A DNA stretch of 64,000 bases, from the NCBI GenBank assembly GCA_964392315.1, contig CAYMOT010000001.1, positions 202,403 to 266,402 on the forward strand. The letters are read 5' to 3'. The DNA is from an uncultured Candidatus Saccharibacteria bacterium (GTDB lineage: Bacteria > Patescibacteriota > 4484-211 > JAGQKX01). Every line of letters begins with the position of its first letter. Positions within the stretch are counted from its first letter, which is position 1. Both the position numbers and the translations under genes were made by a program. The notes beneath the pieces were generated by a model, which saw only the letters and a list, made by a program, of their open reading frames with translations, was not told where the DNA came from and did no database searches. Below, piece after piece: positions 31,938 to 52,550 of this stretch.

Positions 31938-32459
31938 TTACTGTTCTGTTGTAGATGTCTTTCGTACTACTGGAGTATCCTTTGGAAGGCTCCGAGATAG
32001 GGAAGAAATCCTCTCAAGAAAGCGCACCTCGTCTTCAGAATAATCTTTTTGATTTTCCTGTGTCCTCCAGAAGTCCAAAAAGTTTTCTAAGTCAGATGCT
32101 TTCTTTGGTGGCGTTTTCAGTCGTATCTTGGGAACTACGTAGGACGGGAGGAGAAAAGTAGGAGGAATCTCTTCCTTTTCCCACACTCTTATCGTTGGTT
32201 TAGAGATTGCCTGAAAGAAATTTAATATCCATACGTCTGTCCTACGTCCATCGAAACTCGCCAGGGCCAATGCAATAAATACTGGTGCAGTAATGGCAGA
32301 CCCTATCCAGCGTATTATATTTGGCAAAGGTATTGAAAATAGGAGTCCTATGGTAACGCCACCGATAGCTAAATAGATAAATTGACGTGGGGTGAAGTTC
32401 CCAATCACCTTACTCTCGTATTCAGTAACATTTTGTGGAATGCGGTGAGTGAATGGCAT
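31938..32459 (-). CDS. VirB3/PrgI-like small membrane protein (putative type IV secretion inner-membrane component).
   Basis: 173 aa with two adjacent N-terminal transmembrane helices (FIYLAIGGVTIGLLFSIPL and ITAPVFIALALASFDG). It is located just upstream of VirB4, as VirB3/ConD-like proteins are in Gram-positive conjugation systems. Confidence 0.4.
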   Translation of the reverse strand: MPFTHRIPQNVTEYESKVIGNFTPRQFIYLAIGGVTIGLLFSIPLPNIIRWIGSAITAPVFIALALASFDGRRTDVWILNFFQAISKPTIRVWEKEEIPPTFLLPSYVVPKIRLKTPPKKASDLENFLDFWRTQENQKDYSEDEVRFLERISSLSRSLPKDTPVVRKTSTTEQ

Positions 32460-32676
32460 GTTAGCTTAACAGTTTTCAAGATAATCACGATCAAATAGAG
32501 CAAATTCTAATTAAAGTATAGAGGAAAATAGGCTGGAATGAAAGGTGTTAGGTAACTCTTATTAGAGAATTATTTCTTTGCATAGTAACCTACGAAACCG
32601 TTACAGCTTTCAAGGGTATAGAAGGGTAGCTCATTATATGAAAAAAAGGCGGGTAGTCGTGCTCATGAGACCGAGA

Positions 32677-33738: not shown

Positions 33739-33742
33739 AGAT

Positions 33743-36403: not shown

Positions 36404-37349
36404 AAACAGTAACGTTCTCGTTCGAGAAGGTGTACATAGGTAGTGTTACATAATCAGCTGACTCTACATTATAGAAAAAATCATTTGCTATATAATAGCC
36501 TAGATTGGAAGAGGAAAATACCGTAGTAGGCGAATAATTGCCAGCTTGTCTTATTATGTCTCGAAGACGGACTCTTTTAGTAGCATCAGCATAATCAATA
36601 ATTTCAACTTGTTCACCTTTAGACAAGTCTATAAATGGATACCACAGTGAAGCACCGACAATATCTCCGTTAGCATGTACCATTACATATTGCTCGAAGG
36701 GCACATATAATTCTGCATTTCCAATTCTTGTGAGGATTTTTATAAACAATCGAGTTTTTTCGCTTATGTATGAAGATTCAGTTACGCTTTCTCCAGTTTC
36801 AGTATATAAAGTAATGTTTTTTTCATCCCATACATAGATTGGGTTATCGAAACCTATCTTTGAAACGAATTCCTTTGCTTTATTAAACGCTTCGGGGAGG
36901 GTAATTGTCTGTGTTGCTTGCGGGTAACCTTCTAGGGGAACAGAGTAAGTTAGTATACCTCCGGTTACATTGATACTTAATGAGTTACCGTTTTCGGTAT
37001 AAACATAGCCTTCATTAGTAAGCTGTGTACTTGCTTTGGAAGTAAAGCCAATATTAGATGCAATGTTTACTATTGCAGCCTGTGAAAATAACTTTTCAGG
37101 AGCCGAATATATTGGATATACTGTCACGGTATCTGGCGTTCTTATGGGATCATCAAATTCAAACTTGACATACTCTTCCTCGGACAATGCAAGTCTAATA
37201 TTTTCACCAACCCGGATAACCGAATTGTTTGAGGAGTCTACTCGTATAAGAATCAATATCACGCCAAGTACTATAACAGCAAGGATAAGTGCAATAATTA
37301 GAATCGTAACTCTTCGATGTAGCTGAAAATAATTTCGTATGGAGTTCAT
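36384..37349 (-). CDS. Bitopic membrane protein (N-terminal transmembrane helix plus a ~280 aa extracytoplasmic domain); possible VirB8-like component.
   Basis: Transmembrane helix (VTILIIALILAVIVLGVILILI). Soluble domain of the right size and topology for a VirB8/ConB analogue. Overlaps the upstream gene by 20 nt. Confidence 0.4.
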   Translation of the reverse strand: MNSIRNYFQLHRRVTILIIALILAVIVLGVILILIRVDSSNNSVIRVGENIRLALSEEEYVKFEFDDPIRTPDTVTVYPIYSAPEKLFSQAAIVNIASNIGFTSKASTQLTNEGYVYTENGNSLSINVTGGILTYSVPLEGYPQATQTITLPEAFNKAKEFVSKIGFDNPIYVWDEKNITLYTETGESVTESSYISEKTRLFIKILTRIGNAELYVPFEQYVMVHANGDIVGASLWYPFIDLSKGEQVEIIDYADATKRVRLRDIIRQAGNYSPTTVFSSSNLGYYIANDFFYNVESADYVTLPMYTFSNENVTVYVSASK

Positions 37350-37351
37350 AG

Positions 37352-39640
37352 TTAAGGGTTAACAAAAAGATTTCCCAAAACAAGTTCAGGATAATATCTA
37401 AATCGTGCAAAAAAGTTACCTTCGCGCAATTCTTGCCCGGGTACTCCAGCAAAACAACTTGATTGATACATATTGTCCGAGCACCGTTCTCTCCCAATAG
37501 CACCATTTGCTCCTGGAGGCACCCCGTCTTCGTTTGCAGACACAATTTCATACTGCAGGTGAGTATCTCCAGGGGAACCGGTATCTCCCATAACCCCGAG
37601 AAGATAATTGCGAGGGACGTACATTGCATATTCAGAACCAAAATCCAATTTCTGGTTGAAAGGGTAGTTAAAAGTATCTACTGCTCCATCACCATCAGTA
37701 TCCATATTGTGTAATTGTTGATGTCGAATATCGAACGTAAGTGAACTTTCTGTTAGATGAGAATAACGGGTAATAACGTCGGGAATATGGTCACGGTTAA
37801 TATCTGACTCTACTTGAACGGTTACCCCTTTATCTGGATAATCCGGGTCTCGGCCTGCAAAAGTTATCCATCCTGAGTGTGTAGTATATACGTTTGGCGG
37901 CTTAACCTGATTAAAGGCACGTTCGATATCTATCGCCGGGTGCAAATAATCACCTGCTCTGGGGCGTCCATCAAGGGGATACGTTTCACCTTCTCCGGGA
38001 CAATACAAATATTCGTCATAGAGGCTTCGTTCTCCTTCAAGCCAGCGCTGTCGTCCAAGTTCTTGTGCATAACTAGTGTTCCCCCAGTTTTCCTGGATTC
38101 TACCAGTTGTTGGCCAACCAAACGGCACTCCTTCGGTATCTACCGGATTGCCTATAGGTAATGAAACATTTAGTACTGTTCTTCCATTCCGGGTTCCTTC
38201 AGTAGTTCCGCCATATTCAAACTGATACGTAATCGGACCGATGATGCTGTTATTAGATGAGGCGTTATAACCGCACCCTCCCATATCTGGAGAAGAAACA
38301 TCGCGGTATTCAAAGAAATAATCTCTAAATTCTTGGACTGTTAGTGGGCGCTCTAAAAGCAAGTACGCATCCTGACCCGAGTAGTTCTCCATGTCAGCCG
38401 GACAGCGCTCTCCTTCTGAACCATCTGCGCCCTGGCAGATAAAATTATAATCACGGGGTATATTTGACCCCGGTCCCATAGGTAACGGTACAGAGGGAAT
38501 TCTATACCGTACAGTGTCAGGATCATATTGAAAATAGTCCCGATGTTCTCCATCAATAGCGGGGGACGCCGGGTCGTCTGGACCTAGGTTATTGCCAACA
38601 GACTCTTTGTGTGCAGGTAATGAATTGCCATGTTTATTTAAGCGGGCAGGCATTCCTGCGGCAGTTGTAAAATTTAGCGCCCCATCACTAATGTCTATGT
38701 TGTGTGGCCATTCTCTTCCATCCTCCGCTTGTCTAAAGACTCTAATCGTATCGCGTTCAAACATAGTATTCCCGTAATTTTGTATATGTAACATCATTAT
38801 GAAGTCATTGCTGTGGTATATCATTGTTTGGAATTCAATGTAGTTCCACCGTTCTTCGGGAACTGGCACAACTACTGGGGTAGGGGGAATTCCTGGAGGT
38901 ACCCAAGGGGGGGGAGGGGTGGGAAGTTCCTCATCGGTACAGGCGATCTTTAGGCATTTGTAGACATATCCGTCCCTTCTGATCATTTTGTTAGGAATTG
39001 CACCTGGTAGAATAAATTCATTTGGTCCTGGCGAATCTGCAGGAGGTCTTGTAACGCCACTTGCGGCTCGAGTAAAATCAGCATTATCCAGATCAGCAGT
39101 GCCGCCACACCAGCCTCTTAATGCGTGCTCTATAGTTGCGTGATATGTGCTATTTTGGTCTCCGCATTGATTACACGCTACAGAACCTCGGTGTGGCCGA
39201 CCAAATTGGTTTAGCTCACAATAATCGCATGCCTCTTGGATAACTACCTCTCCACACGATTCGCAACAACCGTTTTCTATAATATATTCACGATGGATTG
39301 GTCCGAGCGGATCCTCGTCAACTATTGCGTCTGGTTGTATTCCGCGATAGAAAGTGTCCCATTCCACCCAGGCTTTTAAGAATTGTCCTGCTCCCGCAGC
39401 TGGAGGTGTACTTGGGCCTGGAGGTGCAGGTGTTCCCGGTGCGAAAGGAATGACACTTCCACCAAGTTCTACATTTCGCCCTTGAAAAATTGATCGTACT
39501 CGATCTCCAAGGTTTCCAAAAATTCCAGTACTTCCCGAATTAAATCCATCAAATATCCCTGCATCCACAGGGTTTAAAGAAATCAGAAAAAGTAACAAAC
39601 AGAAAGAGAACGTGCTAAGGTTTTTGTATATTTTATCCAT
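37352..39640 (-). CDS. Secreted Cys-rich protein with a C-terminal M23/LytM-family peptidase-like domain (second His of HxH replaced by Gln).
   Basis: Signal peptide (FSFCLLLFLISLNPVDA). HxxxD motif (YLHPAIDIE), a YxHL-like RYSHLTE, and DTGSPGDTHLQYEIV, which aligns to STGPHLHFEV. An N-terminal ~250 aa Cys-rich region (CCESCGE..CDYC..CNQCGD). Confidence 0.6.
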   Translation of the reverse strand: MDKIYKNLSTFSFCLLLFLISLNPVDAGIFDGFNSGSTGIFGNLGDRVRSIFQGRNVELGGSVIPFAPGTPAPPGPSTPPAAGAGQFLKAWVEWDTFYRGIQPDAIVDEDPLGPIHREYIIENGCCESCGEVVIQEACDYCELNQFGRPHRGSVACNQCGDQNSTYHATIEHALRGWCGGTADLDNADFTRAASGVTRPPADSPGPNEFILPGAIPNKMIRRDGYVYKCLKIACTDEELPTPPPPWVPPGIPPTPVVVPVPEERWNYIEFQTMIYHSNDFIMMLHIQNYGNTMFERDTIRVFRQAEDGREWPHNIDISDGALNFTTAAGMPARLNKHGNSLPAHKESVGNNLGPDDPASPAIDGEHRDYFQYDPDTVRYRIPSVPLPMGPGSNIPRDYNFICQGADGSEGERCPADMENYSGQDAYLLLERPLTVQEFRDYFFEYRDVSSPDMGGCGYNASSNNSIIGPITYQFEYGGTTEGTRNGRTVLNVSLPIGNPVDTEGVPFGWPTTGRIQENWGNTSYAQELGRQRWLEGERSLYDEYLYCPGEGETYPLDGRPRAGDYLHPAIDIERAFNQVKPPNVYTTHSGWITFAGRDPDYPDKGVTVQVESDINRDHIPDVITRYSHLTESSLTFDIRHQQLHNMDTDGDGAVDTFNYPFNQKLDFGSEYAMYVPRNYLLGVMGDTGSPGDTHLQYEIVSANEDGVPPGANGAIGRERCSDNMYQSSCFAGVPGQELREGNFFARFRYYPELVLGNLFVNP

Positions 39641-39646
39641 AGGGCA

Positions 39647-42600
39647 TTATGGTGTTCGGCCTCCGCCGCCGCCAGTCCCACCTCCTCCACCAGAAGGAGC
39701 AGCGGGTGTAGGTGTGGCTGCAAAGTCTCTGTTGTATCGAGCACCTTCTTGGTAGAGTTTTTTGAGGCCTTGAATGTCTCTTCTGTCTCGTTGGCCTGGT
39801 AAAGGAGGAAGTGCACCTTGAACGTCAGCCGGATTTTGCTTAAGTGCCAAGGCCATTGCCTCCATATATATCCCGTGTGCATCACCTGGGGCCTTCTTAA
39901 GTTCGCTTGCAGATTTGACACTTCCTAGGCTTGCGTTACCACTTCTTCTACCCAGTTCTGCTAAATATTGGGCGTGTGTACCTCTAAATTCACTCGTACT
40001 AAGCTTGACAGCACCCGCCTTTGTTCCAGCAGGTGCAATTCCGCTGTCAACTTCTCTTTTGCTCCATCGCGCGAGTTTGCCACCTGAGTATTGTGGAAGT
40101 TTTCCAAAATTGATGATCCGATTAGGATCATTTATTGATAGATCAAGACCAGTGTGTATTGCTTTCTGTTGTTGCGCTCCTAGGCCGGTGCGGCCTACGA
40201 TGTCAACGCTTGGGAGAACCTTTTTACGCAATTGCTGTTCAGCTGCTGCGTACTGTTGCCCTCCGTAGAGTCGTTTCAATAGCGGAGCATCAGTTGTGGG
40301 TAGATTGTAATCGAGGTCAGTGCCCGCTTTTATTCCCGCTGCTTCTGCTTTTTTGAGAGAAGCGTCAAATTTACGTTCACGTTTTTCTTTTGCCTCAGCT
40401 ATTCGGCTACCAGCAAAAGGCAACCGTTCGACCAAGGGTCTGACATATGTTTCGCCCCGTTCTTCAGCCTCTCTTTTGAGTCGTGTCTCTCGGCCTCTTT
40501 GCGTAGCAGAGCGTATGTATCCTTTCTCGCGCCGTTCCTCTACTGCATCTAGGCTTGTGTAGTCAGACACACCGGAGGCCATATTTTGTACCTTTCCTCC
40601 CAATCCTTTCCCGATACCTTGTAGCATTCCTAATGCCTGTCCAGCAAGTCCACCACCACCGAGAAATTGCGCGGCAAGACTAGCGCTCTTTGTACTCATA
40701 AAGAGCGTCCCTCCGCCGATCAAGAATACTCCCGCCTGGACAAACAAACTATCAGCCTCTGCTGTTTTGCTGACTAAAAGAATTCCAATGGCGATAAATA
40801 ATGCGGTGATTGTTTGCATGAATGCCAGAGGTAGCAGCGTCTTAATCCATAGGTTTCTCATACTTCTGAACCAAGGAAGCACGGAAAGCGCAAGAAATAG
40901 GGGAGCTACGATAGTAATTACCCAAATAATAAGGTATCTCCCGAGGAATACTGCCAATAACGATACGACTAATCCTAGAATTGCCAAAGCACCGGCCAAC
41001 ACCGCTCCGATAATTGGAATTATTATTGAACCTCCGGTTCCTACAACCGAAGTAAGAAAAGTTGCAACCCCGGTTGAAATTACTGTGCTTAAGAATGATG
41101 TAATTGCAACAATCCCTCCAGCTGCACCCGCTCCTGCAATTGCGTTGGTAGAAATTCCGGTCGTTTGTAATACATCAAAAATAATTGCAAAAATCCAGGC
41201 TGTTAGAATATTATTTACATCCAAAACTCCCTGTACAATCAACACACTGAGATTTGCAAATATAATACCAATCACCAGCTGTGGAAGCATGACATTAGCG
41301 CCCCAACTTTTTATGTCATACCCCAAGGCATGGTTTATCCCGATTAACAGGAGCAGGAATACAAAGATGATGTTCGCAACTCCCCTGATGATGTTCCAGG
41401 TAACAATAACGCCTGTCGAAACGGTTAATGGTTCGAGAATAAGTATGTTTCGAAGGGTTTGAAGCCCTTTGCCTGCGAGTTCTGTGAAACCGTTTGCAAT
41501 TCTGCATCCGAGTACTGGTATCCGAACTGCTTCAAATCCTTTAAAGACGAAGCCAATTCTAATCCCTACATTGTACATATGTTTCTCTGGTTCAGTCCAA
41601 CCGGCAGGTACCAAATTCCGTTGCAACTCGGCCTGATGTTCTGCTTCAAGTCTTTCCTCGAGAATTTGGCAGGGTGGGCGGAAATCAGCAGTCCATGTAT
41701 TTGGTGTCCCAACAGCGACTCCCTGTTCGACATCTGGTCGTGTCACGAAGGTTTCAGACAACACTTTATCGTCGGCCGTGACACTAATAGTGTACGTGTT
41801 TGAGGCCTCGACATTTCTTCTACAGAGTTCTGGTGAAACAAAACTTCCAGTCGGACAAGCTGTGTCTGGGTCTCTCATCTCAAGAGGAAATATTAAGCTC
41901 CACTCACCAGATTTGTCTCTTAACTGGTCTTCACTGACATTATAGAGGTGTTCACCTAAGCTGTTGTGGACTGTCGCTGTTTGATAAGAAGATGCCCCTT
42001 TAAAACGAACAATAATATCAGCAACGGTCGGAGTAGCGGCATAGGCTCTATCAACTCCAGGCATAATAGTGCGTACAGGTATAAACCCTAGTAACTTATA
42101 TCCTGATGGAACAGGAGGGGTGTATTGAGAGAGAGTAACTGCATTTGCTCCGGTAAATTCGACAAGAGCAGAACCGTTGTAGGGTGTTATTATTTCTTTA
42201 GGATTTAATCCAGTACCGTCAATCATAATACGTAATGAAAGCGGGGGATCAATCAACCCACCGGTAATACCTTCAATAGGTACCAATTTGTCATGCGGGA
42301 TATGTATGAAGCACTTGCTATCAGCAGAGAACTTCTCTATATTGTCTGCGTCGATATTTCGAATCTCATTTGGGTCTGCGAGTGAAACGGTCGCATTATA
42401 AGAACGACAATTTCGTTGGGCGTTCAGGCCTGCCGGGACACTTGTATTTTTAATAACTTCAATTAGTATACCTTTTACCGTGGGATCACTTTTAGGTGCG
42501 GTTGCCGTAATGTCGACTTGAAGTGGTCCGTTTGTGCTAATAACTTCTTTGGTTTTTATCGGAGTTTTGTCCCATAGTGGTTCGTTAAGAAACGGGTCGA

Positions 42601-44047
42601 ATGTAGCTCCTCGAGGATTTGTGGAATAACCAACCGTGTCGTCATAAAAAATGTAGGTAGAGAAACTGTTTTGTGTGTAATCTTGTGGGTTAGTACCCGA
42701 CGTTGTGACTATGTCAGTTGCACAATTACCCAAAACAGTTAGAGACACGCGAGGGTACGTGAACGGTTGTCTATTGTCACATTGTGTACCGAGTCGTCCC
42801 CCATCGACCATTCCATATGACTGTGTATTGACCATGCTCACATTTCCTAGATTCGGCCCTGCAAATGCCCTCCCTGATTGTTGGATTACTCGTCCCCAAA
42901 GAATAAGTTTGTTCTGCAGTAATGCAATGTCATTCCTAATAGCTGTTGGTTCAACCAACTTGTACCAATCGTTCCCTAAATCAACTGTTCCATTTATATC
43001 TGTATCACGTGAAACTCGCACGACACCAAAGCCTATTTGTGTTGACTTGATTTTAGTATTGTTGTCCATAAGATCAGATTGATATGTCGTGCCCCCTTCT
43101 CTTCGCCAAATTGTTACGGCGTATACTCCGGGAGGTGCGAAAGCCATAAATATCCGATCGTTTCGCGTATGGTCAGCTGTGTTAGTAATTGCCTCAAGAG
43201 GGTGTGTGGTGCGTCCAGCAACGATAAGGTTGTCACCAGGATACAAGTCTCTACTTCCAGCGTTAATATAATCAAACCACACCCTGCGAGCCACTAGTTC
43301 ATAGGCACTATCATCAGAAAAATTAACACCTCCATACATTTGTACATGTTTAGACGTAATCTTCAGTGTAGTTGTCGGTATGAGCGGGAAGGTATTAATA
43401 TTATTTGCTATATCAACCCTTGTTTCTTGTGTTAAAAAGGATAATCCTAAACGCACTTCTTCCTGTAGCTGGGTGTAGATAGCGGTTAAATTGGAAGCAT
43501 CACCAATGTTGTATGAAAAAACAGAACCAATGCGGTCGGGATCAGGGTTGGTAGTCGAAGGTAGTTGTGGCATTCGAAAAGGCACATCAAGGCCTTGGAT
43601 TGCTGTCGCATCGCAAGGTGCTACTACAAAACTGACACAGTCAGTACGTAGAACCCTGCCCGATCCGACATCGTAGCGGAATGGGAAATAGACGCCGAAT
43701 TTTTGTCCATTAGGAAGACCCTGCGCTTGAAACGATCCATCCGCTCTAACTTGTGTGCGAACCGCAAGGTTGTTGATGATAAATGAAGAGCCTCCCCAAC
43801 TGTCATATGCATACACGTATACAGGAAGACCAGCCATTCGTTGATAGGCAGCGCTGGGGTCATACGCACTTCCTACAAAGGCAGGTATGAATTGTCCAGA
43901 AAACACCGCCGTATTGTTTGCCGACTGCGACGATTGTGCAGAAACTGACGGCGGTGTTAAAACCTGGACAATGGCGATGGTCAAGAGAAGTACGCTTACT
44001 AATCTCACGCATCTTTCCACTAATAAAAGATATCGACTTGGCAGCAT
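39647..44047 (-). CDS. Giant VirB6/TrbL-like polytopic channel protein: signal peptide, a ~840 aa extracellular N-terminal domain, a multi-transmembrane core, and a cytoplasmic C-terminal region ending in a Gly-rich tail.
   Basis: 1466 aa. Signal or anchor (LVSVLLLTIAIVQVLTPPSVSAQS). Residues ~850-1120 contain six to eight hydrophobic helices (IIFVFLLLLIGINHALGYD..., GGIVAITSFLSTVISTGVATFL..., AVLAGALAILGLVVSLLAVFLG...), typical of VirB6/ConG. C-terminus ...PAAPSGGGGGTGGGGGRTP. Confidence 0.6.
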   Translation of the reverse strand: MLPSRYLLLVERCVRLVSVLLLTIAIVQVLTPPSVSAQSSQSANNTAVFSGQFIPAFVGSAYDPSAAYQRMAGLPVYVYAYDSWGGSSFIINNLAVRTQVRADGSFQAQGLPNGQKFGVYFPFRYDVGSGRVLRTDCVSFVVAPCDATAIQGLDVPFRMPQLPSTTNPDPDRIGSVFSYNIGDASNLTAIYTQLQEEVRLGLSFLTQETRVDIANNINTFPLIPTTTLKITSKHVQMYGGVNFSDDSAYELVARRVWFDYINAGSRDLYPGDNLIVAGRTTHPLEAITNTADHTRNDRIFMAFAPPGVYAVTIWRREGGTTYQSDLMDNNTKIKSTQIGFGVVRVSRDTDINGTVDLGNDWYKLVEPTAIRNDIALLQNKLILWGRVIQQSGRAFAGPNLGNVSMVNTQSYGMVDGGRLGTQCDNRQPFTYPRVSLTVLGNCATDIVTTSGTNPQDYTQNSFSTYIFYDDTVGYSTNPRGATFDPFLNEPLWDKTPIKTKEVISTNGPLQVDITATAPKSDPTVKGILIEVIKNTSVPAGLNAQRNCRSYNATVSLADPNEIRNIDADNIEKFSADSKCFIHIPHDKLVPIEGITGGLIDPPLSLRIMIDGTGLNPKEIITPYNGSALVEFTGANAVTLSQYTPPVPSGYKLLGFIPVRTIMPGVDRAYAATPTVADIIVRFKGASSYQTATVHNSLGEHLYNVSEDQLRDKSGEWSLIFPLEMRDPDTACPTGSFVSPELCRRNVEASNTYTISVTADDKVLSETFVTRPDVEQGVAVGTPNTWTADFRPPCQILEERLEAEHQAELQRNLVPAGWTEPEKHMYNVGIRIGFVFKGFEAVRIPVLGCRIANGFTELAGKGLQTLRNILILEPLTVSTGVIVTWNIIRGVANIIFVFLLLLIGINHALGYDIKSWGANVMLPQLVIGIIFANLSVLIVQGVLDVNNILTAWIFAIIFDVLQTTGISTNAIAGAGAAGGIVAITSFLSTVISTGVATFLTSVVGTGGSIIIPIIGAVLAGALAILGLVVSLLAVFLGRYLIIWVITIVAPLFLALSVLPWFRSMRNLWIKTLLPLAFMQTITALFIAIGILLVSKTAEADSLFVQAGVFLIGGGTLFMSTKSASLAAQFLGGGGLAGQALGMLQGIGKGLGGKVQNMASGVSDYTSLDAVEERREKGYIRSATQRGRETRLKREAEERGETYVRPLVERLPFAGSRIAEAKEKRERKFDASLKKAEAAGIKAGTDLDYNLPTTDAPLLKRLYGGQQYAAAEQQLRKKVLPSVDIVGRTGLGAQQQKAIHTGLDLSINDPNRIINFGKLPQYSGGKLARWSKREVDSGIAPAGTKAGAVKLSTSEFRGTHAQYLAELGRRSGNASLGSVKSASELKKAPGDAHGIYMEAMALALKQNPADVQGALPPLPGQRDRRDIQGLKKLYQEGARYNRDFAATPTPAAPSGGGGGTGGGGGRTP

Positions 44048-44080
44048 AGTCTTAATAACTAATGTCCTGGATTAGCTCAT

Positions 44081-44455
44081 TTAAGCTACCCCAACCAGCG
44101 ATTGAAGCCCAGGGATAAGCCCAATAATAAACCTCCAGAGGGCATAAGCTGCTGCTACAATGATAAGTCCGATTACTGCGTTTGTAATACGCTTTCGTGC
44201 TGCTCCTACGTTATCTTCATTGTCACCTGCGGTTAGATAGGTGAATGCACCCCAGAATAAGTAAAGCAATACTGCGACAGCGGCAACAACGAAAACAAGG
44301 TCAATGCCACGTCTGATTAAATCTCCAAAATCAGTAAATCCGGTACTTGGTCGAGAAATACCTGTGAGTAGCTGTGCGTGAACGGGAGCGGCTGTTGCTA
44401 ATGTTGCAATGCCTGTAGAAGCTGTAATCAATGCACTTTTTATTTTATCTGTCAT
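44081..44455 (-). CDS. VirB2/TrbC-like pilin paralog 1 (signal peptide plus two hydrophobic segments).
   Basis: Signal (ALITASTGIATLATAAPVHAQ). Hydrophobic segment 1 (LVFVVAAVAVLLYLFWGAFTYL). Conserved LTAGD motif. Hydrophobic segment 2 (AVIGLIIVAAAYALWRFIIGLIPG). Confidence 0.5.
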   Translation of the reverse strand: MTDKIKSALITASTGIATLATAAPVHAQLLTGISRPSTGFTDFGDLIRRGIDLVFVVAAVAVLLYLFWGAFTYLTAGDNEDNVGAARKRITNAVIGLIIVAAAYALWRFIIGLIPGLQSLVGVA

Positions 44456-44522
44456 GCGGTTCCACCTCCTTTGATACTTAACTCAGAATAGCATACGCTA
44501 TACGGCGTCGCAATAGCTGTGA

Positions 44523-44930
44523 TTAGGTAATGAAATTTTTTAATCCAGGGATCAAATCTAGAATGAGCTTGAAGATAATAAATACGCTGCCTACACCCAC
44601 AAGCCCAACAATAGACCATGTAATGTTACTACGTGCTTTTTCCAGTTTCTCAGTACTATCCCCAGCGGTTAGATAATCAAACGCTGCCTTAAAGAAGTTA
44701 AAGAGCAATATTATGGCCCCAAACCCAAGGGCGCCCGTTACCATAGTGGTAATGAGTTGACCTAAGACTAACAATGTGCAATGAGGCCACGACAGGATTT
44801 CGCCATCAGGTAAGCCGTCACAGCTAGGAAGAGTCCCTCCGCCTTGAGCATACGCGTTATGAGAGTGAACCGTAAACGTAAGAAACAAGACAAATACTAT
44901 TGGTAAGAATAGAAGCAGGTTTTTCTTCAT
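44523..44930 (-). CDS. VirB2/TrbC-like pilin paralog 2.
   Basis: Signal (LLLFLPIVFVLFLTFTVHSHNAYAQ). Same architecture with YLTAGDSTEKLEKARSNITWSIVGLVGVGSVFIIFKLILDLIPG. Confidence 0.5.
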   Translation of the reverse strand: MKKNLLLFLPIVFVLFLTFTVHSHNAYAQGGGTLPSCDGLPDGEILSWPHCTLLVLGQLITTMVTGALGFGAIILLFNFFKAAFDYLTAGDSTEKLEKARSNITWSIVGLVGVGSVFIIFKLILDLIPGLKNFIT

Positions 44931-44934
44931 TGTA

Positions 44935-45330
44935 TTAAGATCCTGTAATTACAATCTTCCATGAGTCAGGAAGGATGGACTCAAATGCCCTAATAAAAAC
45001 ATATCCACCAACTACTATAACAAGCCCCACCATAGACTGGGTGAGTGCCTCGCGGCCGTTTTGCAATCTTTGCGGGTCTCCTTGAGCAGTAATAAACATA
45101 AAAAATCCGGCGGTAGCTCTATATATAGAGACTAAAACGCCAATTAAGATCATTAAGTCAAGCATAAAATTTGCAAAATCTTCGACATTGACACAACTAT
45201 CGGTGATCGCGACGTAGGTGGCATCGTTAGGACAATTAACGTTTGGCGTGGGGCGCTGGGCGTATACGGTATTCAGGGAAGCTAGAATGAGGAAAAGAGC
45301 GACACATCCTGGAATTAATATTCTCTTCAT
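44935..45330 (-). CDS. VirB2/TrbC-like pilin paralog 3. ATG at 45330 gives a canonical signal peptide; the track start at 45399 is over-extended.
   Basis: MKRILIPGCVALFLILASLNTVYAQ signal. FITAQGDPQRLQNGREALTQSMVGLVIVVGGYVFIRAFESILPD matches the other two paralogs. Confidence 0.5.
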   Translation of the reverse strand: MKRILIPGCVALFLILASLNTVYAQRPTPNVNCPNDATYVAITDSCVNVEDFANFMLDLMILIGVLVSIYRATAGFFMFITAQGDPQRLQNGREALTQSMVGLVIVVGGYVFIRAFESILPDSWKIVITGS

Positions 45331-45395
45331 ATAGGTATCATACCAACACAAACATAAATGTGAAATGTACACATTTGTGTAAATGTACCGAAGTG

Positions 45396-47624
45396 TCACT
45401 GTACTTTAACTAAAATACTTTCTCCTTGCTCAAATACATGAGTCCCTTGGGAGAGGAGAAGGTCGGTCTGAATATCTGGATATTTGTCTCTTTCAAGTTT
45501 TGAGATGTAGATGTATGAAACATTATACTTCCTTAATAACTCTGCTCTTTTTGTCTGGTCCGTCGTTGTATAGATCACACGTACATCTTCAACCCGTTGA
45601 GCGACCGTATCTGAGCCGAATGTCTCTAACACACGTGATGGAGGTTCCACTGGTTCTGCATACGAGCCTCTCCATAACCATTCGTGTACTGGCCACCCCA
45701 TAACCGTGGGGAGTCCAGTATTTGATGCGATTCGGGCATAGTCTGTATAGCTGTCTCCGACTGCTTCAACAATAACTGGCTGTCCTGTAATATTTTTGTT
45801 TATCCAATCAATCGCCGCGGCATCATGTTTAAGTGTTTTCGTTACGTATGCAGTGCCATTGAGGCCTTTATATTCGCTGAATGCGTCGGTTACGGTTTTT
45901 ATTGCCATGTAAGGATACAGTAACGTAGAACCGATGAGCAGATAAGACAGCAACACATCGAGTCGCCAGAGAACTTGGAGTGATTCTTTTTTTATGGTGT
46001 AGAGCATCCGAATAAATGCGTATGCGCTTGCAATAGATAACAAAATCCACGCTGCATAATAGAGTTTGAACATCGTATTGGCACGATAGTAATCAGGTAC
46101 GTAAATATCTTTGACGTATATGATTTCTGGTGCTATTAAGAGTGCAATTCCTAATCCGATTAGTAAAAGAGCGAATGTATCGCTCGAATTCCTCGTTGCT
46201 TGTTCTGGCGTGTTGCCGTCAGAAGGTTCGTTCTTAACGGAGATTGATACTTTGAGCGCCCCTGCAATTTTTTGTACGATTCGTTCTTTCATGTTTCTTA
46301 TGTGCAGAAAGCGTGCCAGTGTTTGACGCAACGCAAAAATAACGAAACTGACCGCGATAAACAGATACATTCCCCAAAGTATGAGGAATTCTTTGAGCGG
46401 AGAGAGGGTCGTTACTTTTCCGATGCCATCAGAAATTGGCTTTACGGTGAGCCAAAATGGCGCAAACAGTCCAACACTTCCTATGAGCAAAGGTATCGCA
46501 AACAGGGCGGCAGTCTCTAACGCTTCCCACCAGGCCAAAAGCCTGCTACGTGTAGAGTGTGCAATAGTGTGATACGCAAGGTACACAAACACACAGCCAC
46601 TGAGTACAAGGTATATAGGAAAATCCCAAGAGTTAGTGGCATAGCTTGTTCCTACCATAAGCGCGAGGATAGCAAGAGACAAAAGTAGGCGTTTGTTCTT
46701 GAGGCTGTGTGCACTAATGCTCAGGTTGTCCCGTGAAATAAAGAGATTACACAATATTCCAAGAGCTACGAGAACAAATGGAATATTGCTCACGTGTGCA
46801 TGCAAATCCGCCACGATAAAACTGTATACCGGGAATTCGTTGATAGTGAAAGGAATCAACCTGCTCGCTGTAGCGTACCAGTAGGTGTCTAAGGAGGAGA
46901 TATGAAGTACTGTATGAAGATTTCCGGTCAGTGCCGTAAGGATACCTCCCAGAATACCCCCAATAAATATAATAATTTTGTGAATATGCGGGAATACATT
47001 TCTGAGTAGTGTCGCGGTGATGCTGAAACTTCCCATGAATGATATTGCAAACAGGTACGCAATCTGTAGGTTATAAGTAAAATTAGGAGGTAGGTGTGAA
47101 ATCTGCGTAATTACCGCTGCGACGTAGTGTCCAAAGTAGTAATAATTAATTGGTTCGCTTGCAAAAAAATGGTCTACTGGTGGGAAATACTCAGCACGCA
47201 AGATTGAGAGCATAAACCCGTAGTCCATAAATTTTTCCAAACCATGAATGTCTGGGTTGTATGCACGGACTATGCTCCAAAAAACAAGAAGGCACAAGAA
47301 TAATACCTCACTAATGATGACTACCTTCCATGGTATTGCAGAAATAGTTGATTTTATAGATCTGGAGTGAAAAATCTGTACGCTCCAAATGAGTACCGAA
47401 ATAAGAACGGCAATAAGGATGGTGTGTAGTGGAGAGAAGCGTAGTACTCTTGTAATAGCGAGGAGCCATACAATATATGAGACTATCCCAATGCCTACCA
47501 CTTTGCTGAGGATCCATCCCTTATCAACAAATCGAGGGAGTATCGTCTTGCTCAACGGCCAGAAGCCAACTCCGAGCGCAAAGATTGCGGTATAAAATTG
47601 TAGAAATGCATAAGGATCAGACAT
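45396..47624 (-). CDS. Large polytopic membrane protein (742 aa) with a soluble C-terminal domain; GT-C-type glycosyltransferase-like (family unassigned).
   Basis: About fourteen to sixteen transmembrane helices through residue ~560, then a ~180 aa extracytoplasmic C-terminal domain. It overlaps the pilin gene by 4 nt and is the first gene of the block upstream of the type IV secretion-like genes. Confidence 0.5.
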   Translation of the reverse strand: MSDPYAFLQFYTAIFALGVGFWPLSKTILPRFVDKGWILSKVVGIGIVSYIVWLLAITRVLRFSPLHTILIAVLISVLIWSVQIFHSRSIKSTISAIPWKVVIISEVLFLCLLVFWSIVRAYNPDIHGLEKFMDYGFMLSILRAEYFPPVDHFFASEPINYYYFGHYVAAVITQISHLPPNFTYNLQIAYLFAISFMGSFSITATLLRNVFPHIHKIIIFIGGILGGILTALTGNLHTVLHISSLDTYWYATASRLIPFTINEFPVYSFIVADLHAHVSNIPFVLVALGILCNLFISRDNLSISAHSLKNKRLLLSLAILALMVGTSYATNSWDFPIYLVLSGCVFVYLAYHTIAHSTRSRLLAWWEALETAALFAIPLLIGSVGLFAPFWLTVKPISDGIGKVTTLSPLKEFLILWGMYLFIAVSFVIFALRQTLARFLHIRNMKERIVQKIAGALKVSISVKNEPSDGNTPEQATRNSSDTFALLLIGLGIALLIAPEIIYVKDIYVPDYYRANTMFKLYYAAWILLSIASAYAFIRMLYTIKKESLQVLWRLDVLLSYLLIGSTLLYPYMAIKTVTDAFSEYKGLNGTAYVTKTLKHDAAAIDWINKNITGQPVIVEAVGDSYTDYARIASNTGLPTVMGWPVHEWLWRGSYAEPVEPPSRVLETFGSDTVAQRVEDVRVIYTTTDQTKRAELLRKYNVSYIYISKLERDKYPDIQTDLLLSQGTHVFEQGESILVKVQ

Positions 47625-47632
47625 CGTTTTGG

Positions 47633-49327
47633 TTATCGAAGCTTATTATAGAGTAATGGTTGTATATTTGTAGCGTCAAATGCTGTTTTTTTAAATATCT
47701 GTACTCGTGGATGGTCATATACAGTAAAACTTTCATCGGCTTGTTGGTCGTTTCTGGAGAAACCGAAAAGATTGGGATAGGAAGTAATTTCTTTGACTTT
47801 TGAGAATCCTAACGTGCCGTCAAAAAGCAACTTGTAGTATTCAATTGTCGCGGGGTATTGGTCGGGTAGATTGGGGATAGAGTCATATAGTCGGTTGCTT
47901 GCGATAATAATATATTCAACGTGATCGAGTGTCTGAACCAACTGGGTTATCTTTGCTGGTGAATCGGGGATATATAACTCTAACGATTTGTGCTGATAGT
48001 ATTCGGAATCATAAAGTGGCAAGCTTCGATCCCAGTGCTCTACACCGAGTGTAGCGTTTCCCGGAATGTTAGAGTGAATCCACTCGCTTGCTTGAATCCA
48101 GGTGTGTGGTTTTGTGTAAATGGATATGAATGCGATTGTCCACCACATACTCGGAATGACTATTAGTAGTGTAAGAGCTGTTTGTAGCATCAGAGAACGT
48201 ATGTGGAGTATATGTACCCCGACATACGCAGCACTCATGGCAAGAAGTGGATAGAGCGGTAAGTAATATCGCATGAACTTCACCGCAGAACTGCCGAGCG
48301 ATAAAAAAAGGACACTAAAAAACAGCACGAACCACACAGAAGCCTCGAAGCGCTTGGTTTTAGAAGTCTTGATTATAGATGAATACGTAAGCGCAATCAT
48401 TCCAGTGATACCAAGAAATGTAAATGAAGGACCAAGCCCCCATCTGAATATCTGTACGACAGGATACAAGAAGGGTACTGTGTCGATATATTGAATAGTG
48501 TAGGGGAAAACAGTAGCATCCGAACGCATATCCAGTTGTGAGCCAATCTGATTGGAAAAGGTGTCAAAATCTATATACGCATAGGGTTGTAAGACAAAAT
48601 TTGTGATTAGGAATAGAGCTGCTGCCGTTATAAATAGTTCCTTAGCCTGTAGAGCAGTAAACGTATTTTCTTTCATATTACGCGAAATAAGGTAGCGGTA
48701 TACGATACTCGAAACTAAGAACGGGATGAGGATAACAGCTGTAAATTTTGTAGCAACTGCCATGCTCGTTGTGACACTAGCCCAGAGTAGATATTTTTTC
48801 TTTCCGTCCTCAGTATAGTGCAATATAAGAAGCAGCGTACCCATCATCCAAAACACCATTTGTCCATCGACGGTATAAAAGTGGGCATTTTGTATGGGGA
48901 ATACTGATAGTGCATAGACTGCCATAGCAAGTACACCTAGCAAGGTGGAACGAAAAATTTTTCGTGACAAAAATAAAAGCAGTATCAACGTGCCAATATC
49001 AAATAAGGCTGAAAGCGGGCGGCCAACCTTATAGAGGTTTCCATATTCAACAATATTTGGATCAATAACCCCCATAAGGTACGCAAGACCTTTTAGGAGA
49101 TACAACGGAAAGGAGCCATAGGCGAAAAACTTGGGATTAAGTGGACTCTCGGCGGTAAAGAAAGTCGAAAAATTTAGAGGCAACTCGAGTTGAAAAACCA
49201 TATTATAAATATGTGCTTCATCCGGATGGGGGTAGTAGCCACCATCCCAATTCAGGGGGAATGCGCGAAGCAGAAATGCCCCAAAAATAATGAAAGCCAA
49301 TATAACGGAGCGGTAGTTGTCTTTCAT
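47633..49327 (-). CDS. PMT/ArnT-family (GT39/GT83-like) membrane glycosyltransferase, paralog A.
   Basis: DE motif in the first extracytoplasmic loop (GGYYPHPDEAHIYN) as in protein O-mannosyltransferases/ArnT. About twelve transmembrane helices. C-terminal extracytoplasmic domain. Confidence 0.65.
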   Translation of the reverse strand: MKDNYRSVILAFIIFGAFLLRAFPLNWDGGYYPHPDEAHIYNMVFQLELPLNFSTFFTAESPLNPKFFAYGSFPLYLLKGLAYLMGVIDPNIVEYGNLYKVGRPLSALFDIGTLILLLFLSRKIFRSTLLGVLAMAVYALSVFPIQNAHFYTVDGQMVFWMMGTLLLILHYTEDGKKKYLLWASVTTSMAVATKFTAVILIPFLVSSIVYRYLISRNMKENTFTALQAKELFITAAALFLITNFVLQPYAYIDFDTFSNQIGSQLDMRSDATVFPYTIQYIDTVPFLYPVVQIFRWGLGPSFTFLGITGMIALTYSSIIKTSKTKRFEASVWFVLFFSVLFLSLGSSAVKFMRYYLPLYPLLAMSAAYVGVHILHIRSLMLQTALTLLIVIPSMWWTIAFISIYTKPHTWIQASEWIHSNIPGNATLGVEHWDRSLPLYDSEYYQHKSLELYIPDSPAKITQLVQTLDHVEYIIIASNRLYDSIPNLPDQYPATIEYYKLLFDGTLGFSKVKEITSYPNLFGFSRNDQQADESFTVYDHPRVQIFKKTAFDATNIQPLLYNKLR

Positions 49328-51090
49328 GTGTTATTACCCCCTTTTAGAAGGTTTTCATATGTATTGGTATCTAAGGGGTCATTTTTTTTGAAGATGTGTA
49401 CGGTCGGATGATCAAATACGTAAAACGTTCCTTCACTGGAATGTATGTTTGTCGGGCAAAGAAGTACCTCAACCGCATTTGGCAATCGTTTGCTTATGTG
49501 TTCGGGAATGATACATGCACGTGGTGCTGTTTCATACACGTGGGTAAAGCCCAAATCACCCGCAAAGAGCGCAGTGTAATAGTTAGCGGCAATAGGGTAC
49601 CTATGTGGTAGTCGTAGTGCAGCGGATGAAACTCGATCACTCGGTAATAGGATATAGTCAGTTGTTTCTAGTGTACGTGCAAGTCGTGAATAGCTGGTTT
49701 CCGACTCATCTAATTCATACATATCTATTAAAGTAATCTGAACTCCAAGGGAAGCATTAAATGGGATAATGTTCGGGTCAAGTGCTTCTGACAGAATTGC
49801 TTGATGTGGAGAAATATTCTCCGTAAGCCATTGTGCCGCTCGTTGACGGGAGTCAGGCTGTGTGTAAATCGTGAAAAACGAAACACCGCGGAATACAACC
49901 TCTGCAATTAATACCATCACGATCACGATGACCCCTGTTTTCAGGTATTGCTTTGACAGTATGAGGTACAGTTTTGAGGCGACATATATGACGGCGATGA
50001 CGAGGAGCACTAGTGCAGGTATCATATATCGCGACCATTTTACGAACATGGACATATGAAAAGCCGTGTATCCCAGAAACACATACAAAAACAAAACTAA
50101 CGCCGGATTACGACGAATGGTTCTGACTCCATAGAGTGCAATAGCGGTCACGGCTACTGTGCCAATACCAACAAATATGTATCCACTCAAGAAGGGTAAG
50201 ACGTGCCGTAATTGGTAAACAAATGGCACCGTTTCATTAAAATTTCTCGTGTAAAACACAGGCAATGTACCGGTAGCAACCCCGCGTTCGTAGTTGAGGG
50301 AGTTAACAAATGATGCATAGTCCAGCGCAACAAAAGGGTTTGTTATAAAAAAGGTACACACTATTGCCAGCATGCATCCGGCAAGATTGTTTATGAGGGA
50401 TCGAGGAAGGTGAAACATCGAGAGAATATCTTTAAATACGAGTTTTTCTCCTTTGGAAATATTCTGCAGGAATAGTATGCCAATAGGTAGTCCAATGAGG
50501 TAGAGGCTGACAATTTTTGTGCCAATAGTGAGACCAATAATGATTCCTAGCAGGAGGAAAGAACGGAAAGTAGATTTAGCATAGGCATTGATGGCAGCCA
50601 TGTAGGTGAGTACATAAAAACACGTGAGGAATGTTTCGAATGTGGCAAAGTGTGCAAATTGTATATTGCCGATTAAAAACGTATATAAGGTTGCTCCGGT
50701 GAGTGCAAACCCGCGTGATGCCCCAAGCAAACAAGATGCATAATAGATAAGGGGAATGAGAATAATTGAGGTAAGCGCAGACAGATGCCGTCCTATGGTG
50801 AGTGCTTGCTCAACCGACACAAACCATACATCCACCGCACCCTTGAATATGTTTTGGAGGACCCCAGCTGCATAGGTCACATAGATAGGAAAAGACCCAT
50901 ACGCAAAAAACTCCGGATTGGCGTTATCGGGTACATGGATGTTGCTTACTGCGTACCCGATGTTTAGTTCATCGGGATGGACGAACGAATCAGCCCAGTT
51001 TAGATTGTACAAACGGAGGACAGAACCAACGAGGACGAAGAGGAAAAGTATAATTCTATAAAAATCCTTTGTGACAAGTGGTTTAATCAT
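49324..51090 (-). CDS. PMT/ArnT-family membrane glycosyltransferase, paralog B.
   Basis: SFVHPDELNIGYAV and FAYGSFPIYV, compared with FAYGSFPLYL in paralog A. Same topology. 4 nt overlap with paralog A. Confidence 0.65.
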   Translation of the reverse strand: MIKPLVTKDFYRIILFLFVLVGSVLRLYNLNWADSFVHPDELNIGYAVSNIHVPDNANPEFFAYGSFPIYVTYAAGVLQNIFKGAVDVWFVSVEQALTIGRHLSALTSIILIPLIYYASCLLGASRGFALTGATLYTFLIGNIQFAHFATFETFLTCFYVLTYMAAINAYAKSTFRSFLLLGIIIGLTIGTKIVSLYLIGLPIGILFLQNISKGEKLVFKDILSMFHLPRSLINNLAGCMLAIVCTFFITNPFVALDYASFVNSLNYERGVATGTLPVFYTRNFNETVPFVYQLRHVLPFLSGYIFVGIGTVAVTAIALYGVRTIRRNPALVLFLYVFLGYTAFHMSMFVKWSRYMIPALVLLVIAVIYVASKLYLILSKQYLKTGVIVIVMVLIAEVVFRGVSFFTIYTQPDSRQRAAQWLTENISPHQAILSEALDPNIIPFNASLGVQITLIDMYELDESETSYSRLARTLETTDYILLPSDRVSSAALRLPHRYPIAANYYTALFAGDLGFTHVYETAPRACIIPEHISKRLPNAVEVLLCPTNIHSSEGTFYVFDHPTVHIFKKNDPLDTNTYENLLKGGNNT

Positions 51091-51098
51091 AGGGTAAC

Positions 51099-52550
51099 TT
51101 ACAGTACCTTCTTAAGTGCTGGTAAGATGATTATTCGATGGGGCCAATAAAAAGTGAAGAAAGCAGCAATTAATTGTAGTATCCCGGCCATCAAATTATA
51201 TTCCTTTACTGGCAACGTAAGGTTGGCAGCTTGTATCAGTAAATACCACACGAATAAAGAGATAAAGAAATTAAGGTAGGTCAGTCGAATGATGCCAGAA
51301 ATTGCATTGTTTGAAAGAACGACAAAGAGAGGAAGCAGCCACATAAAGTACCAATGGTTAAAAAGTTGCAAAAAGTAGAGCAAAAAGACAAGTATTAGGA
51401 TAATAATAGCGTGGAGATAGCCCTGTATTGGCTCAAATCTCTCCGTTTTTGAGATGAATGTGAGAGTGTACATAACGGTGATAACTAACCATCCACCCAT
51501 ACCTATGTATGCAACATAGAGTGCGATCTGTTCATTACCCGATAATGCAAGAATTGCACTTGAGATTGAAAAACCTAAGAGAAGTGCCTGGTTTGCTATT
51601 CCGTTGAGGATATCTGCCTTAATAACAAGATAAATGCCTGTAGCTCCTATTATTAGGACCCAAGGGAGAATAAGTGTAACAAAACGTTTTTTGCTCACGT
51701 TTTGCCATATCCAATACAGAATAATCGGTACAATAATCACCGATATGTATTTTGTGAAAATGCTCATAGTAAGCCAAAACAGTGTTTGTGCGTAACGTTG
51801 TCTGACCATCGAATATACACTTAGCGCAAAAAAGAGAATAAACAGAATATCGTTATGAATGGCACCAACGAAGGAATAGAGTATCAGAGGGCTCATGAAG
51901 ATGGCAACAATTGCTGAGGATCTTTGGGGGGCAAGCGCCTTGGATATTTTTATGACTACAAGCATGGATAGTAGGGTTAAGAGGTACGAGATTCCCTTGT
52001 AAATGAGTGTTATGGTTACGATGGGCAATGTCCGAACAGGAATGTAAATAGCAGTATGGAGCAGCAGCCATACTGGTCCATACGGGAGGTAGGGTGATTC
52101 TGGTGTTGGTGCTAGATCAGTCTGCGGATATTGGCGCGTTGGCGAATAAATTTCGGAGTAAGGATTCTCTTGATATACCCCAAGACGCTCGGAATACCAT
52201 AAGTTTGCATAGTAATCGAGTGCATCGAGCGGGTACATAAATAAAAAAGGGATTGCAGTAATGCTAACAAATGCTATCGCAGATTTTGTGCTAATGCTTG
52301 TATATGCTTTGACAAATTTTTCAAGCAATATACAAACCAAGATTAAGCAAAAACCGATAAGGATAACTTCAGTAAATGTTAACAACTCGGGAATTCTGTA
52401 TACGCGTATTCGATCCAAAATTCCTATGGGAATCAAGTATGGAAAAAGCGCCGTGTATATTACCAGGAGTATCAGTGGTGTATACCAGGGCTTAGCGAGT
52501 ATTTTGTGCCATAGCCAGTTGTGCGACGTCCTCGCCCAGTTTAACTGCAT
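51099..52550 (-). CDS. Polytopic membrane protein (483 aa), possibly GT-C-like. Function unknown.
   Basis: About twelve transmembrane helices and no large soluble domain. The track start overlaps the upstream FAD-oxidoreductase gene by 59 nt, so the true start may be an internal or alternative codon. Confidence 0.45.
   Translation of the reverse strand: MQLNWARTSHNWLWHKILAKPWYTPLILLVIYTALFPYLIPIGILDRIRVYRIPELLTFTEVILIGFCLILVCILLEKFVKAYTSISTKSAIAFVSITAIPFLFMYPLDALDYYANLWYSERLGVYQENPYSEIYSPTRQYPQTDLAPTPESPYLPYGPVWLLLHTAIYIPVRTLPIVTITLIYKGISYLLTLLSMLVVIKISKALAPQRSSAIVAIFMSPLILYSFVGAIHNDILFILFFALSVYSMVRQRYAQTLFWLTMSIFTKYISVIIVPIILYWIWQNVSKKRFVTLILPWVLIIGATGIYLVIKADILNGIANQALLLGFSISSAILALSGNEQIALYVAYIGMGGWLVITVMYTLTFISKTERFEPIQGYLHAIIILILVFLLYFLQLFNHWYFMWLLPLFVVLSNNAISGIIRLTYLNFFISLFVWYLLIQAANLTLPVKEYNLMAGILQLIAAFFTFYWPHRIIILPALKKVL

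Follow-up and report, generated by a model that had tools for sequence, protein, structure and literature searches.

The question raised by the locus discussed here is what is encoded by three small, consecutive genes that occupy positions 44081-45330 of a 64,000-nucleotide stretch of DNA from an uncultured Candidatus Saccharibacteria bacterium (this whole stretch is referred to below as the window), and why there should be three of them. The genes, here called pilC (44935-45330, 131 amino acids from an ATG at 45330), pilB (44523-44930, 135 amino acids), and pilA (44081-44455, 124 amino acids), are open reading frames (ORFs) arranged head to tail on the minus strand, where they open a type IV secretion system (T4SS) cluster, and a hidden Markov model (HMM) of the array, run on the ORFs of the window, found no pilin copies besides these three. 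A first-pass annotation had read them as tandem, divergent VirB2-like pilin paralogs, a reading that has held in the analysis described below. The explanation that is favored, to which a probability of about 0.8 can be attached, is that the triad represents a pilC-pilB-pilA cassette of VirB2-like pilins that opens an origin-proximal chromosomal T4SS cluster, with pilA as the candidate major pilin and pilB and pilC as the probable minor ones.

The architecture that the first-pass annotation had described is found in all three predicted proteins. Each begins with a basic N-terminus, which is followed by a hydrophobic or Ala/Thr-rich h-region and by a signal-peptidase-like V/A-x-A↓Q site (PVHA↓Q in pilA, NAYA↓Q in pilB, and TVYA↓Q in pilC), such that cleavage would be expected after PVHA27, NAYA28, and TVYA25, respectively; because the evidence for this processing consists of sequence features, it is counted here as inferred. 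Hydropathy and motifs then delineate two hydrophobic helices with a charged loop between them, the loop starting with (L/I)TA(G/Q)(D/G) and ending in Arg (YLTAGDNED..ARKR in pilA, YLTAGDSTE..KAR in pilB, and FITAQGDPQ..GRE in pilC), and the proteins terminate in GLIPGL, DLIPGL, and SILPDS in the same order. Clusters of basic residues are confined to the loops, and the positive-inside rule would place the loop inside the cell and both ends outside. Ahead of the first helix, pilB carries a conserved Cys37-x13-Cys51 pair and pilC carries Cys33 and Cys46, which are a candidate disulfide, while pilA has no cysteine.

It could be argued that these are unrelated small hydrophobic proteins whose likeness to pilins is compositional, since short proteins with two transmembrane (TM) segments are known to give weak spurious HMM matches (DUF7937, hydrogenase 4, and Cyt_bd_oxida_II were seen here) and the fold search described below does not discriminate. 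Against this, composition-adjusted BLASTP yields significant matches between any two of the three proteins (E=2e-15 for pilA/pilB, 4e-7 for pilA/pilC, and 7e-6 for pilB/pilC, at 25-29% identity), so that the likeness goes beyond chance or composition and the three are judged to be paralogs. The shared motifs also survived a proper alignment, with TAG(D/G), AR..IT, and GL kept across 83 relatives, and tandem arrays of such genes lie consistently beside VirB4, TrsD, or PrgI in independent lineages. The compositional explanation can thus be considered effectively refuted.

The identity of the proteins as VirB2-like pilins is indicated by family models, by predicted structure, and by the co-directional T4SS genes. 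The Pfam T4SS_pilin family PF18895 (gathering cut-off 26.6 bits) is matched above its cut-off by pilA (37.9 bits, E 1.9e-9) and pilB (29.1 bits, E 1.1e-6). A profile search of a large protein collection retrieved 109 relatives, nearly all of them bearing PF18895, and every one of the 83 relatives that were aligned matches this family. Nineteen of the 83 cross-match the TrbC/VirB2 family PF04956 (cut-off 27.9 bits) at E <= 0.01, with a best E of 4.6e-7, and 62 of the 83 match, at E <= 1e-3, NF045849 (equivalog cut-off 40 bits), a model of the "Mbov_0395 family pilin-like conjugal transfer protein" of a Mycoplasma integrative and conjugative element (ICE). Both helices align to the 80-residue NF045849 model, with pilA residues 53-114 corresponding to model positions 19-80. 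The structure prediction that had been proposed as a check was made with AlphaFold2 (AF2) for pilA and pilC and yielded helical hairpins in both cases. In the pilA model the hairpin is long (helices 43-75 and 80-113), with a mean predicted local distance difference test score (pLDDT) of 82.1 and values of ~95-97 over the hairpin; the pilC model shows the same hairpin (helices 49-80 and 86-119; mean pLDDT 83.3, ~93-96 over the helices), preceded by a small beta-hairpin (37-40 and 45-48) that lies between Cys33 and Cys46.

The pilin genes head an uninterrupted minus-strand run of 17.5 kb (27756-45330), in which the recognizable T4SS components are a PrgI-family (VirB3-like) membrane protein (31938-32459; PF12666, 44.5 bits, above the cut-off), a TrsD-like protein resembling the N-terminal region of VirB4 (29981-30670; NCBIfam TrsD, E 1.6e-7), and a VirB4 ATPase of the monoderm CD1110 or MPF-FATA-like type (27756-29975; NF045971, 391 bits against a cut-off of 325 bits, with PF19044, PF12846, and PF03135). 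Counted downstream from pilA on the shared strand, VirB4 is encoded by the ninth ORF, and the PrgI and TrsD-like genes lie in between. The TrsD and VirB4 N-terminal matches of the TrsD-like protein are all under the curated cut-offs; its homologs adjoin VirB4 in three of the related loci described below (L012, L017, and L019). Both the VirB4 and the TrsD-like protein of the window also match a Mycoplasma ICE VirB4 model. A relaxase or a coupling protein (VirD4) had no family match among the 26 window proteins that were scanned, a set that does not include every ORF, and the Pfam and NCBIfam scans of the cluster identified neither a VirB5-like tip protein nor a cyclizing or processing peptidase. 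The VirB4 gene is followed directly by recF (26641-27762, plus strand), dnaN (23919-25094, plus strand), and dnaA (22175-23593, minus strand), and the minimum of the cumulative GC skew falls at ~24 kb, 4 kb away; these two observations place the cluster on the chromosome, beside the replication origin oriC.

Such a setting is already familiar from the literature. Quinonero-Coronel et al. (2025, PMC12102498) surveyed 3,035 Patescibacteria genomes with the Pfam models that were also used here and reported that 383 assemblies contain 441 VirB2 arrays, made up of 2-11 pilin genes each, whose within-array identity is 25% on average and 54% at most. The T4SSs of Patescibacteria were described there as comprising an MPF-FATA-like VirB4, TrsD, and PrgI, as being devoid of relaxases, and as lying near dnaA (PMC12102498). 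In Southlakia epibionticum, transposon sequencing (Tn-seq) showed the pilin series of the T4SS to be essential for epibiotic growth (Wang et al. 2023, PMC10633639), and a 2025 review counted six divergent VirB2-like pilins in this organism and raised the idea of a pilus or conduit (PMC12857230). Since arrays of 2-11 divergent pilins have been published for Patescibacteria, the locus is of a known kind, that is, a further example of these arrays and not a novel type: it has three tandem genes whose 25-29% identity compares with the published mean of 25%, a virB4 within 20 coding sequences together with TrsD-like and PrgI/VirB3 genes, and a chromosomal position next to dnaA and oriC with no relaxase or coupling-protein match in the scanned set. 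It follows that the remark of the first-pass annotation that a single VirB2 is usual applies to the classical systems and not to Patescibacteria, for which 2-11 copies have been published (PMC12102498, PMC10633639) and 3-11 are present in the related loci gathered here. Compared with the published arrays (including Southlakia ML1 SEML1_0006-0019), the locus is alike in its tandem PF18895 pilins of ~25% identity, its chromosomal VirB4/TrsD/PrgI cluster, the adjacent dnaA, and the lack of a relaxase found nearby; it differs in having three copies, as against six in Southlakia and up to 11 in related loci, and in its fixed C-B-A cassette, which is preceded by a block of GT-C-type genes and followed by a hypervariable 1466-residue protein.

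The related loci were gathered with a four-sequence pilA-type alignment, and every ORF of 14 such loci was then screened with an HMM derived from the paralogs. Same-strand tandem runs of 3-11 hits were found in 12 of the 14, with 11 hits in L018, nine each in L010 and L020, eight each in L011, L012, and L014, seven each in L008, L009, and L015, and three each in L007 and L013; several of these arrays, in independent lineages, are near VirB4, TrsD, or PrgI. The nearest loci, with 59% and 54% identity to pilA, come from metagenome-assembled genomes (MAGs) labeled Candidatus Saccharibacteria and candidate division WWE3, respectively, and the remaining ones from Paceibacterota, Microgenomates, and Woesebacteria; by its sequence, the host is taken to be an ultrasmall Patescibacteria (candidate phyla radiation, CPR) bacterium related to the WWE3 and Saccharibacteria MAGs. 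A separate observation is that three arrays of 7-9 pilins (L009, L010, and L014) carry the labels candidate division TM6 (a complete genome) or "uncultured Gammaproteobacteria" (MAGs); either the family is wider than Patescibacteria or these MAG labels are wrong.

Why there should be three genes is best addressed through their orthologs. The first-pass annotation had offered two functional ideas, namely that the copies reflect major and minor pilins or that they serve antigenic or host-range variation. The second idea amounts to interchangeable major pilins, a role suggested for the arrayed VirB2 paralogs of Bartonella and Anaplasma and raised for Patescibacteria as well (PMC12102498), and the low identity within the array would be consistent with it. 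The orthology, in contrast, speaks for fixed identities. Locus L007 contains one-to-one orthologs of all three pilins in the same order (reciprocal best scores of 289, 242, and 323, with non-orthologous pairs at 146 or less), even though the flanking proteins are only ~47-49% identical. Orthologs of the pilA type (P0002, P0012-P0018, and the third L007 pilin, L007_3) are 54-66% identical to pilA; in those of the pilB type (L007_2 and P0019-P0024) Cys-x13-Cys is strictly conserved; and those of the pilC type (L007_1, P0011, P0022, P0025, P0026, and P0033) have the Cys pair plus N-terminal extensions that vary in length. The order C-B-A followed by a gene of ~1450 codons recurs in L007, L021, L022, and L024. 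As separate orthologs of every paralog exist even in genomes where the neighboring proteins are only ~48% identical, the split must be ancient and each copy must have been retained; on these comparisons, the triad is regarded as an old, syntenic, and fixed cassette of three ortholog classes that are not interchangeable.

Substitution patterns between closely related strains lead in the same direction. For pilA, comparison with L002 and L003 gives 13 and 16 synonymous differences, respectively, and no non-synonymous ones, the protein being identical across strains; for pilB, comparison with L002 gives 14 synonymous differences and again no non-synonymous ones, and the non-synonymous differences from L003 are mostly located in the signal peptide. 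The ratio of non-synonymous to synonymous substitution rates (dN/dS) is therefore 0 for pilA in both strains and for pilB in L002. What comes closest to variation is pilC, the most diverged of the three between strains, for which L003 has a deeply diverged allele (dS saturated, dN 0.14) of 81.5% identity, as compared with 97.6% for the neighboring DUF2298 protein, and whose orthologs differ in N-terminal length; from Ser68 on, however, the L003 protein (helices and loop) is nearly unchanged, with residues 68-108 identical. Purifying selection thus acts on all three genes, strictly so on pilA and pilB. The changes expected of antigenic variation, which would be lineage-specific and enriched in non-synonymous substitutions, are accordingly at odds with the one-to-one orthology in distant relatives and with a dN/dS of ~0, and this explanation is considered very improbable. 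Strain-level hypervariability is instead found in the 1466-residue protein encoded downstream, which is 54% identical in L002, where all pilins are 100% identical, and 86% identical in L003; overall, the pilins are 82-100% identical between strains and the upstream DUF2298 protein 98-99%. It may be this protein, rather than the pilins, that determines host specificity. A sharp divergence boundary was observed at the pilA stop codon.

The three genes also differ in their expression signals. The junction between pilC and pilB is short, with 4 nt from the pilC stop to the pilB start codon here and 1-14 nt or an overlap among the orthologs, unlike the spacer ahead of the pilA-type gene, which measures 67 nt in the window (44456-44522) and 67-128 nt in all relatives. 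Within this spacer lies a promoter-like element (44485-44513, minus strand) with TTGCGA (44513-44508), 17 nt, and TGc-TATTCT (-10 at 44490-44485), read from the sequence, as the consensus scan did not call it (8/12 matches); in the form TTGCGR, 17 nt, TGcTATTCT, it is kept in the corresponding spacer of L003, L021, and L024 and, in part, of L007 and L022. It is followed, upstream of the pilA ATG, by a strong Shine-Dalgarno region, AAGGAGGTGGA (44461-44471, minus strand), and each of the six spacers aligned contains AAGG(A/G)GGTGGA ahead of the pilA-type gene, varying at a single position (A or G); pilB has no ribosome-binding site comparable to that of pilA. A second promoter-like element is located upstream of pilC (45337-45364, minus strand; TTCACA, 16 nt, TGg-TATGAT; 10/12 consensus match with TG), and its -10 ends 6 nt ahead of the ATG, so that the pilC mRNA may be leaderless or near-leaderless. 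This -10-like block, TTGGTATGATA, is kept in L003 and L021. An alternative 154-residue pilC starting from a GTG at 45399 was rejected, as its 23 extra residues would precede a normal signal peptide; the gene callers also chose the 131-residue form, and the conserved -10-like block would fall inside the extension.

From these data, the one major plus two minor, non-redundant subunits of the favored explanation are preferred over antigenic variation, on the grounds of the one-to-one orthology, the purifying selection, the distinct expression signals, and the conserved Cys pairs. In the mechanism proposed, Sec would insert each prepilin, which would then be cleaved behind (H/Y)A, and the mature pilin would form a membrane pool, its two termini outside the cell and its charged loop on the inner side. 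A VirB4-driven machine would then extract it to form an extracellular filament or conduit toward the host cell, a polymer in which the loop would face the lumen and both termini would point outward. The role of major (shaft) subunit would fall to pilA, whose protein sequence is invariant and undecorated and whose gene is served by a conserved promoter-like element of its own and by the strongest ribosome-binding site of the three, with pilB and pilC as low-copy, non-redundant minor subunits that would expose a Cys-bracketed, disulfide-stapled N-terminal segment outside the filament.

The main rival to a true pilus is a short wall-spanning conduit, in which the pilins would never leave the cell but would form membrane or wall-spanning parts of the channel, stalk, or conduit of a pilus-less monoderm T4SS, each paralog at a distinct position. 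This would suit the VirB4, which is of the monoderm CD1110 type, and the fact that the majority of the family resembles the pilin-like protein of Mycoplasma ICEs, systems for which no pilus is known. Strict one-to-one orthology under purifying selection would likewise be expected of fixed structural roles, and no pilus of a Patescibacteria T4SS has been observed so far in the literature (PMC12102498, PMC12857230). The architecture of the proteins, with their AF2 hairpins, is nevertheless that of polymerizing VirB2-type pilins, and the expression signals of pilA are such as a high-copy subunit would be expected to have. A surface-exposed polymer also accommodates better the finding that relatives have up to 11 copies and in some cases join the hairpin to an ectodomain several hundred residues long: the pilin hairpin forms the extreme C-terminus of proteins of 387-506 amino acids in L011 (8459-9634), L018 (15-2677), and L020 (1083-3868) and is N-terminal or central instead in L015, L016, and L019. 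These large proteins are candidates for adhesin-pilin fusions or tip subunits, and the N-terminal, presumably exposed end of the pilin would seem to be the site of elaboration in the distant loci. On balance, the channel explanation is regarded as unlikely, though less so than antigenic variation.

It has to be noted that several observations weigh against reading the triad as a pilus-forming VirB2-like cassette. No filament has yet been observed for any Patescibacteria T4SS, and monoderm T4SSs are generally without pili (PMC12102498, PMC12857230). The match of pilC to PF18895 (19.9 bits, E 8.1e-4) is under the 26.6-bit cut-off; pilC is tied to pilA and pilB by BLASTP and has the same AF2 hairpin despite this score, and its ortholog P0026 carries a precomputed PF18895 match. 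With PF04956, pilB scores 13.4 bits (E 0.089) and pilA and pilC give no match, so that none reaches the cut-off, and with NF045849 the three score 25.4, 24.5, and 17.1 bits, short of the 40 bits required. Because of these scores, the triad is to be seen as related to, and not as belonging to, PF04956 and NF045849, and its TrbC/VirB2 kinship would hold at the superfamily level only. A sequence search with the 83-member profile recovered no solved pilin, the best hit (E 0.04) being a TM segment of a viral glycoprotein, and Foldseek against the Protein Data Bank (PDB) returned nothing significant, the archaeal (Aeropyrum) conjugation pilus 8dfu ranking second with an E of 2.5 as the best pilin hit; a fold as simple as a two-helix hairpin cannot be discriminated by such a search. 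The promoter-like elements are defined by consensus resemblance and conservation, from which their function is deduced, and the number of promoter-like sites in the region overall equals the shuffled expectation. Finally, signal-peptide cleavage, disulfide formation, and the assignment of major and minor roles are inferred.

How the triad relates to other known systems bears on its possible origin. With the diderm TrbC/VirB2 proteins (PF04956; VirB2 of Agrobacterium, TrbC of RP4, and TraA of F), it shares the signal peptide, the two helices, the short charged loop, and the linkage to VirB4 and VirB3; it differs from them in the monoderm host, in having three genes and not one, in the Cys-bracketed N-terminal segment added in pilB and pilC, and in the absence of an identified VirB5-like tip or processing peptidase from the cluster. 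The likeness to the Mycoplasma ICE Mbov_0395 family lies in the two aligned helices and in the matches of the relatives, and the differences, besides the scores, are that the Mycoplasma proteins are encoded on a mobile conjugative element and the cluster described here is chromosomal, with no relaxase found; a search for literature on pilin-like proteins in Mycoplasma ICEs gave only a general T4SS review. The arrays of Bartonella and Anaplasma phagocytophilum are alike in having several tandem, divergent virB2 copies that belong to an effector-type, host-interaction T4SS; those arrays are read as a means of antigenic or host-range variation, whereas the copies here are ancient, orthologously conserved, and under purifying selection. 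In the 2025 survey, VirB2-like pilins were treated as absent from monoderm MPF-FATA systems (PMC12102498), and the match of 62 of the 83 relatives to NF045849 suggests otherwise.

Of the other genes in the cluster, the one directly 3′ of pilA encodes the 1466-residue, multi-TM protein with a signal peptide (39647-44047, minus strand as are all genes of the cluster), which is syntenic in L007, L021, L022, and L024 and is a candidate extended VirB6-like or adhesin component. Next come proteins of 762 (37352-39640) and 321 amino acids (36384-37349), both with syntenic orthologs in L007, L021, and L024; a cellulase-like protein of glycoside hydrolase family 5 (GH5) with 886 amino acids (33743-36403; PF00150, E 8.7e-10) and an ortholog in L007, which is possibly a hydrolase of wall or host polysaccharides; and proteins of 434 (32677-33981) and 419 amino acids (30673-31932). 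For the 1466-, 762-, 321-, and 434-residue proteins, no family match was found in Pfam or NCBIfam. The GH5-like ORF and the ORF that follows it overlap by 239 nt, which points to a mis-called downstream start or to an unusual overlap. Directly upstream of the triad, DUF2298 (45396-47624, minus strand; PF10060, 359 bits), a GT-C-type membrane protein, is the last gene of a minus-strand block of GT-C-type glycosyltransferases (45396-52550; DUF2298, PMT_2, PMT, and MptA_B-like). Among the close relatives, L007, L021, and L022 retain its adjacency to the pilins, and a general link between DUF2298/PMT genes and pilin arrays was rejected, as they do not occur within 10 kb of the distant arrays. The pilC-type orthologs P0022 and P0025 have Pro/Gly/Thr-rich N-terminal extensions, and O-glycosylation of the pilins or of surface proteins by the adjacent GT-C enzymes is conceivable. 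The T4SS cluster and the glycosyltransferase genes, up to ~53.8 kb, are all on the minus strand, which on this replichore means that they are transcribed head-on to replication. An Rfam scan of the window matched only a tmRNA gene (59037-59447, plus strand, 79.7 bits) and a tRNA gene (61882-61969, plus strand) and no rRNA.

No T4SS other than that of Patescibacteria has been reported to be essential for the growth of its owner, and the pilin array of the Patescibacteria T4SS is its main anomaly for a monoderm system. The locus leaves this picture unchanged. What is added here is the fixed C-B-A ortholog cassette, the purifying selection, the promoter-like element and strong ribosome-binding site of pilA, and the Cys pair of pilB and pilC, from which two modest leads emerge, one concerning the major/minor architecture of a minimal array and the other the family link to the Mycoplasma ICE pilin-like proteins. 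As to the first, a minimal three-gene array with clear ortholog classes, in which the pilA class is invariant and separately promoted and the pilB and pilC classes carry the Cys pair and are translationally linked, provides a simple test case for whether such pilins build one structure together, as major and minor subunits, or stand in for one another. The second bears on a point left open by the 2025 survey, namely, whether the pilins arrived together with the monoderm machinery or were recruited from diderm systems. In its furthest-reaching form, which is put forward tentatively and is not thought likely, the proposal would be a heteropolymeric filament in a monoderm epibiont, with a pilA shaft and with pilB and pilC as obligatory, host-contacting, and maybe O-glycosylated stapled hairpins that are enlarged to ectodomains in relatives, and with an origin nearer to the Mycoplasma ICE pilin-like proteins than to the diderm VirB2. 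If that kinship is true, VirB2-type subunits would be ancestral to monoderm MPF-FATA systems and not borrowed from a diderm T4SS.

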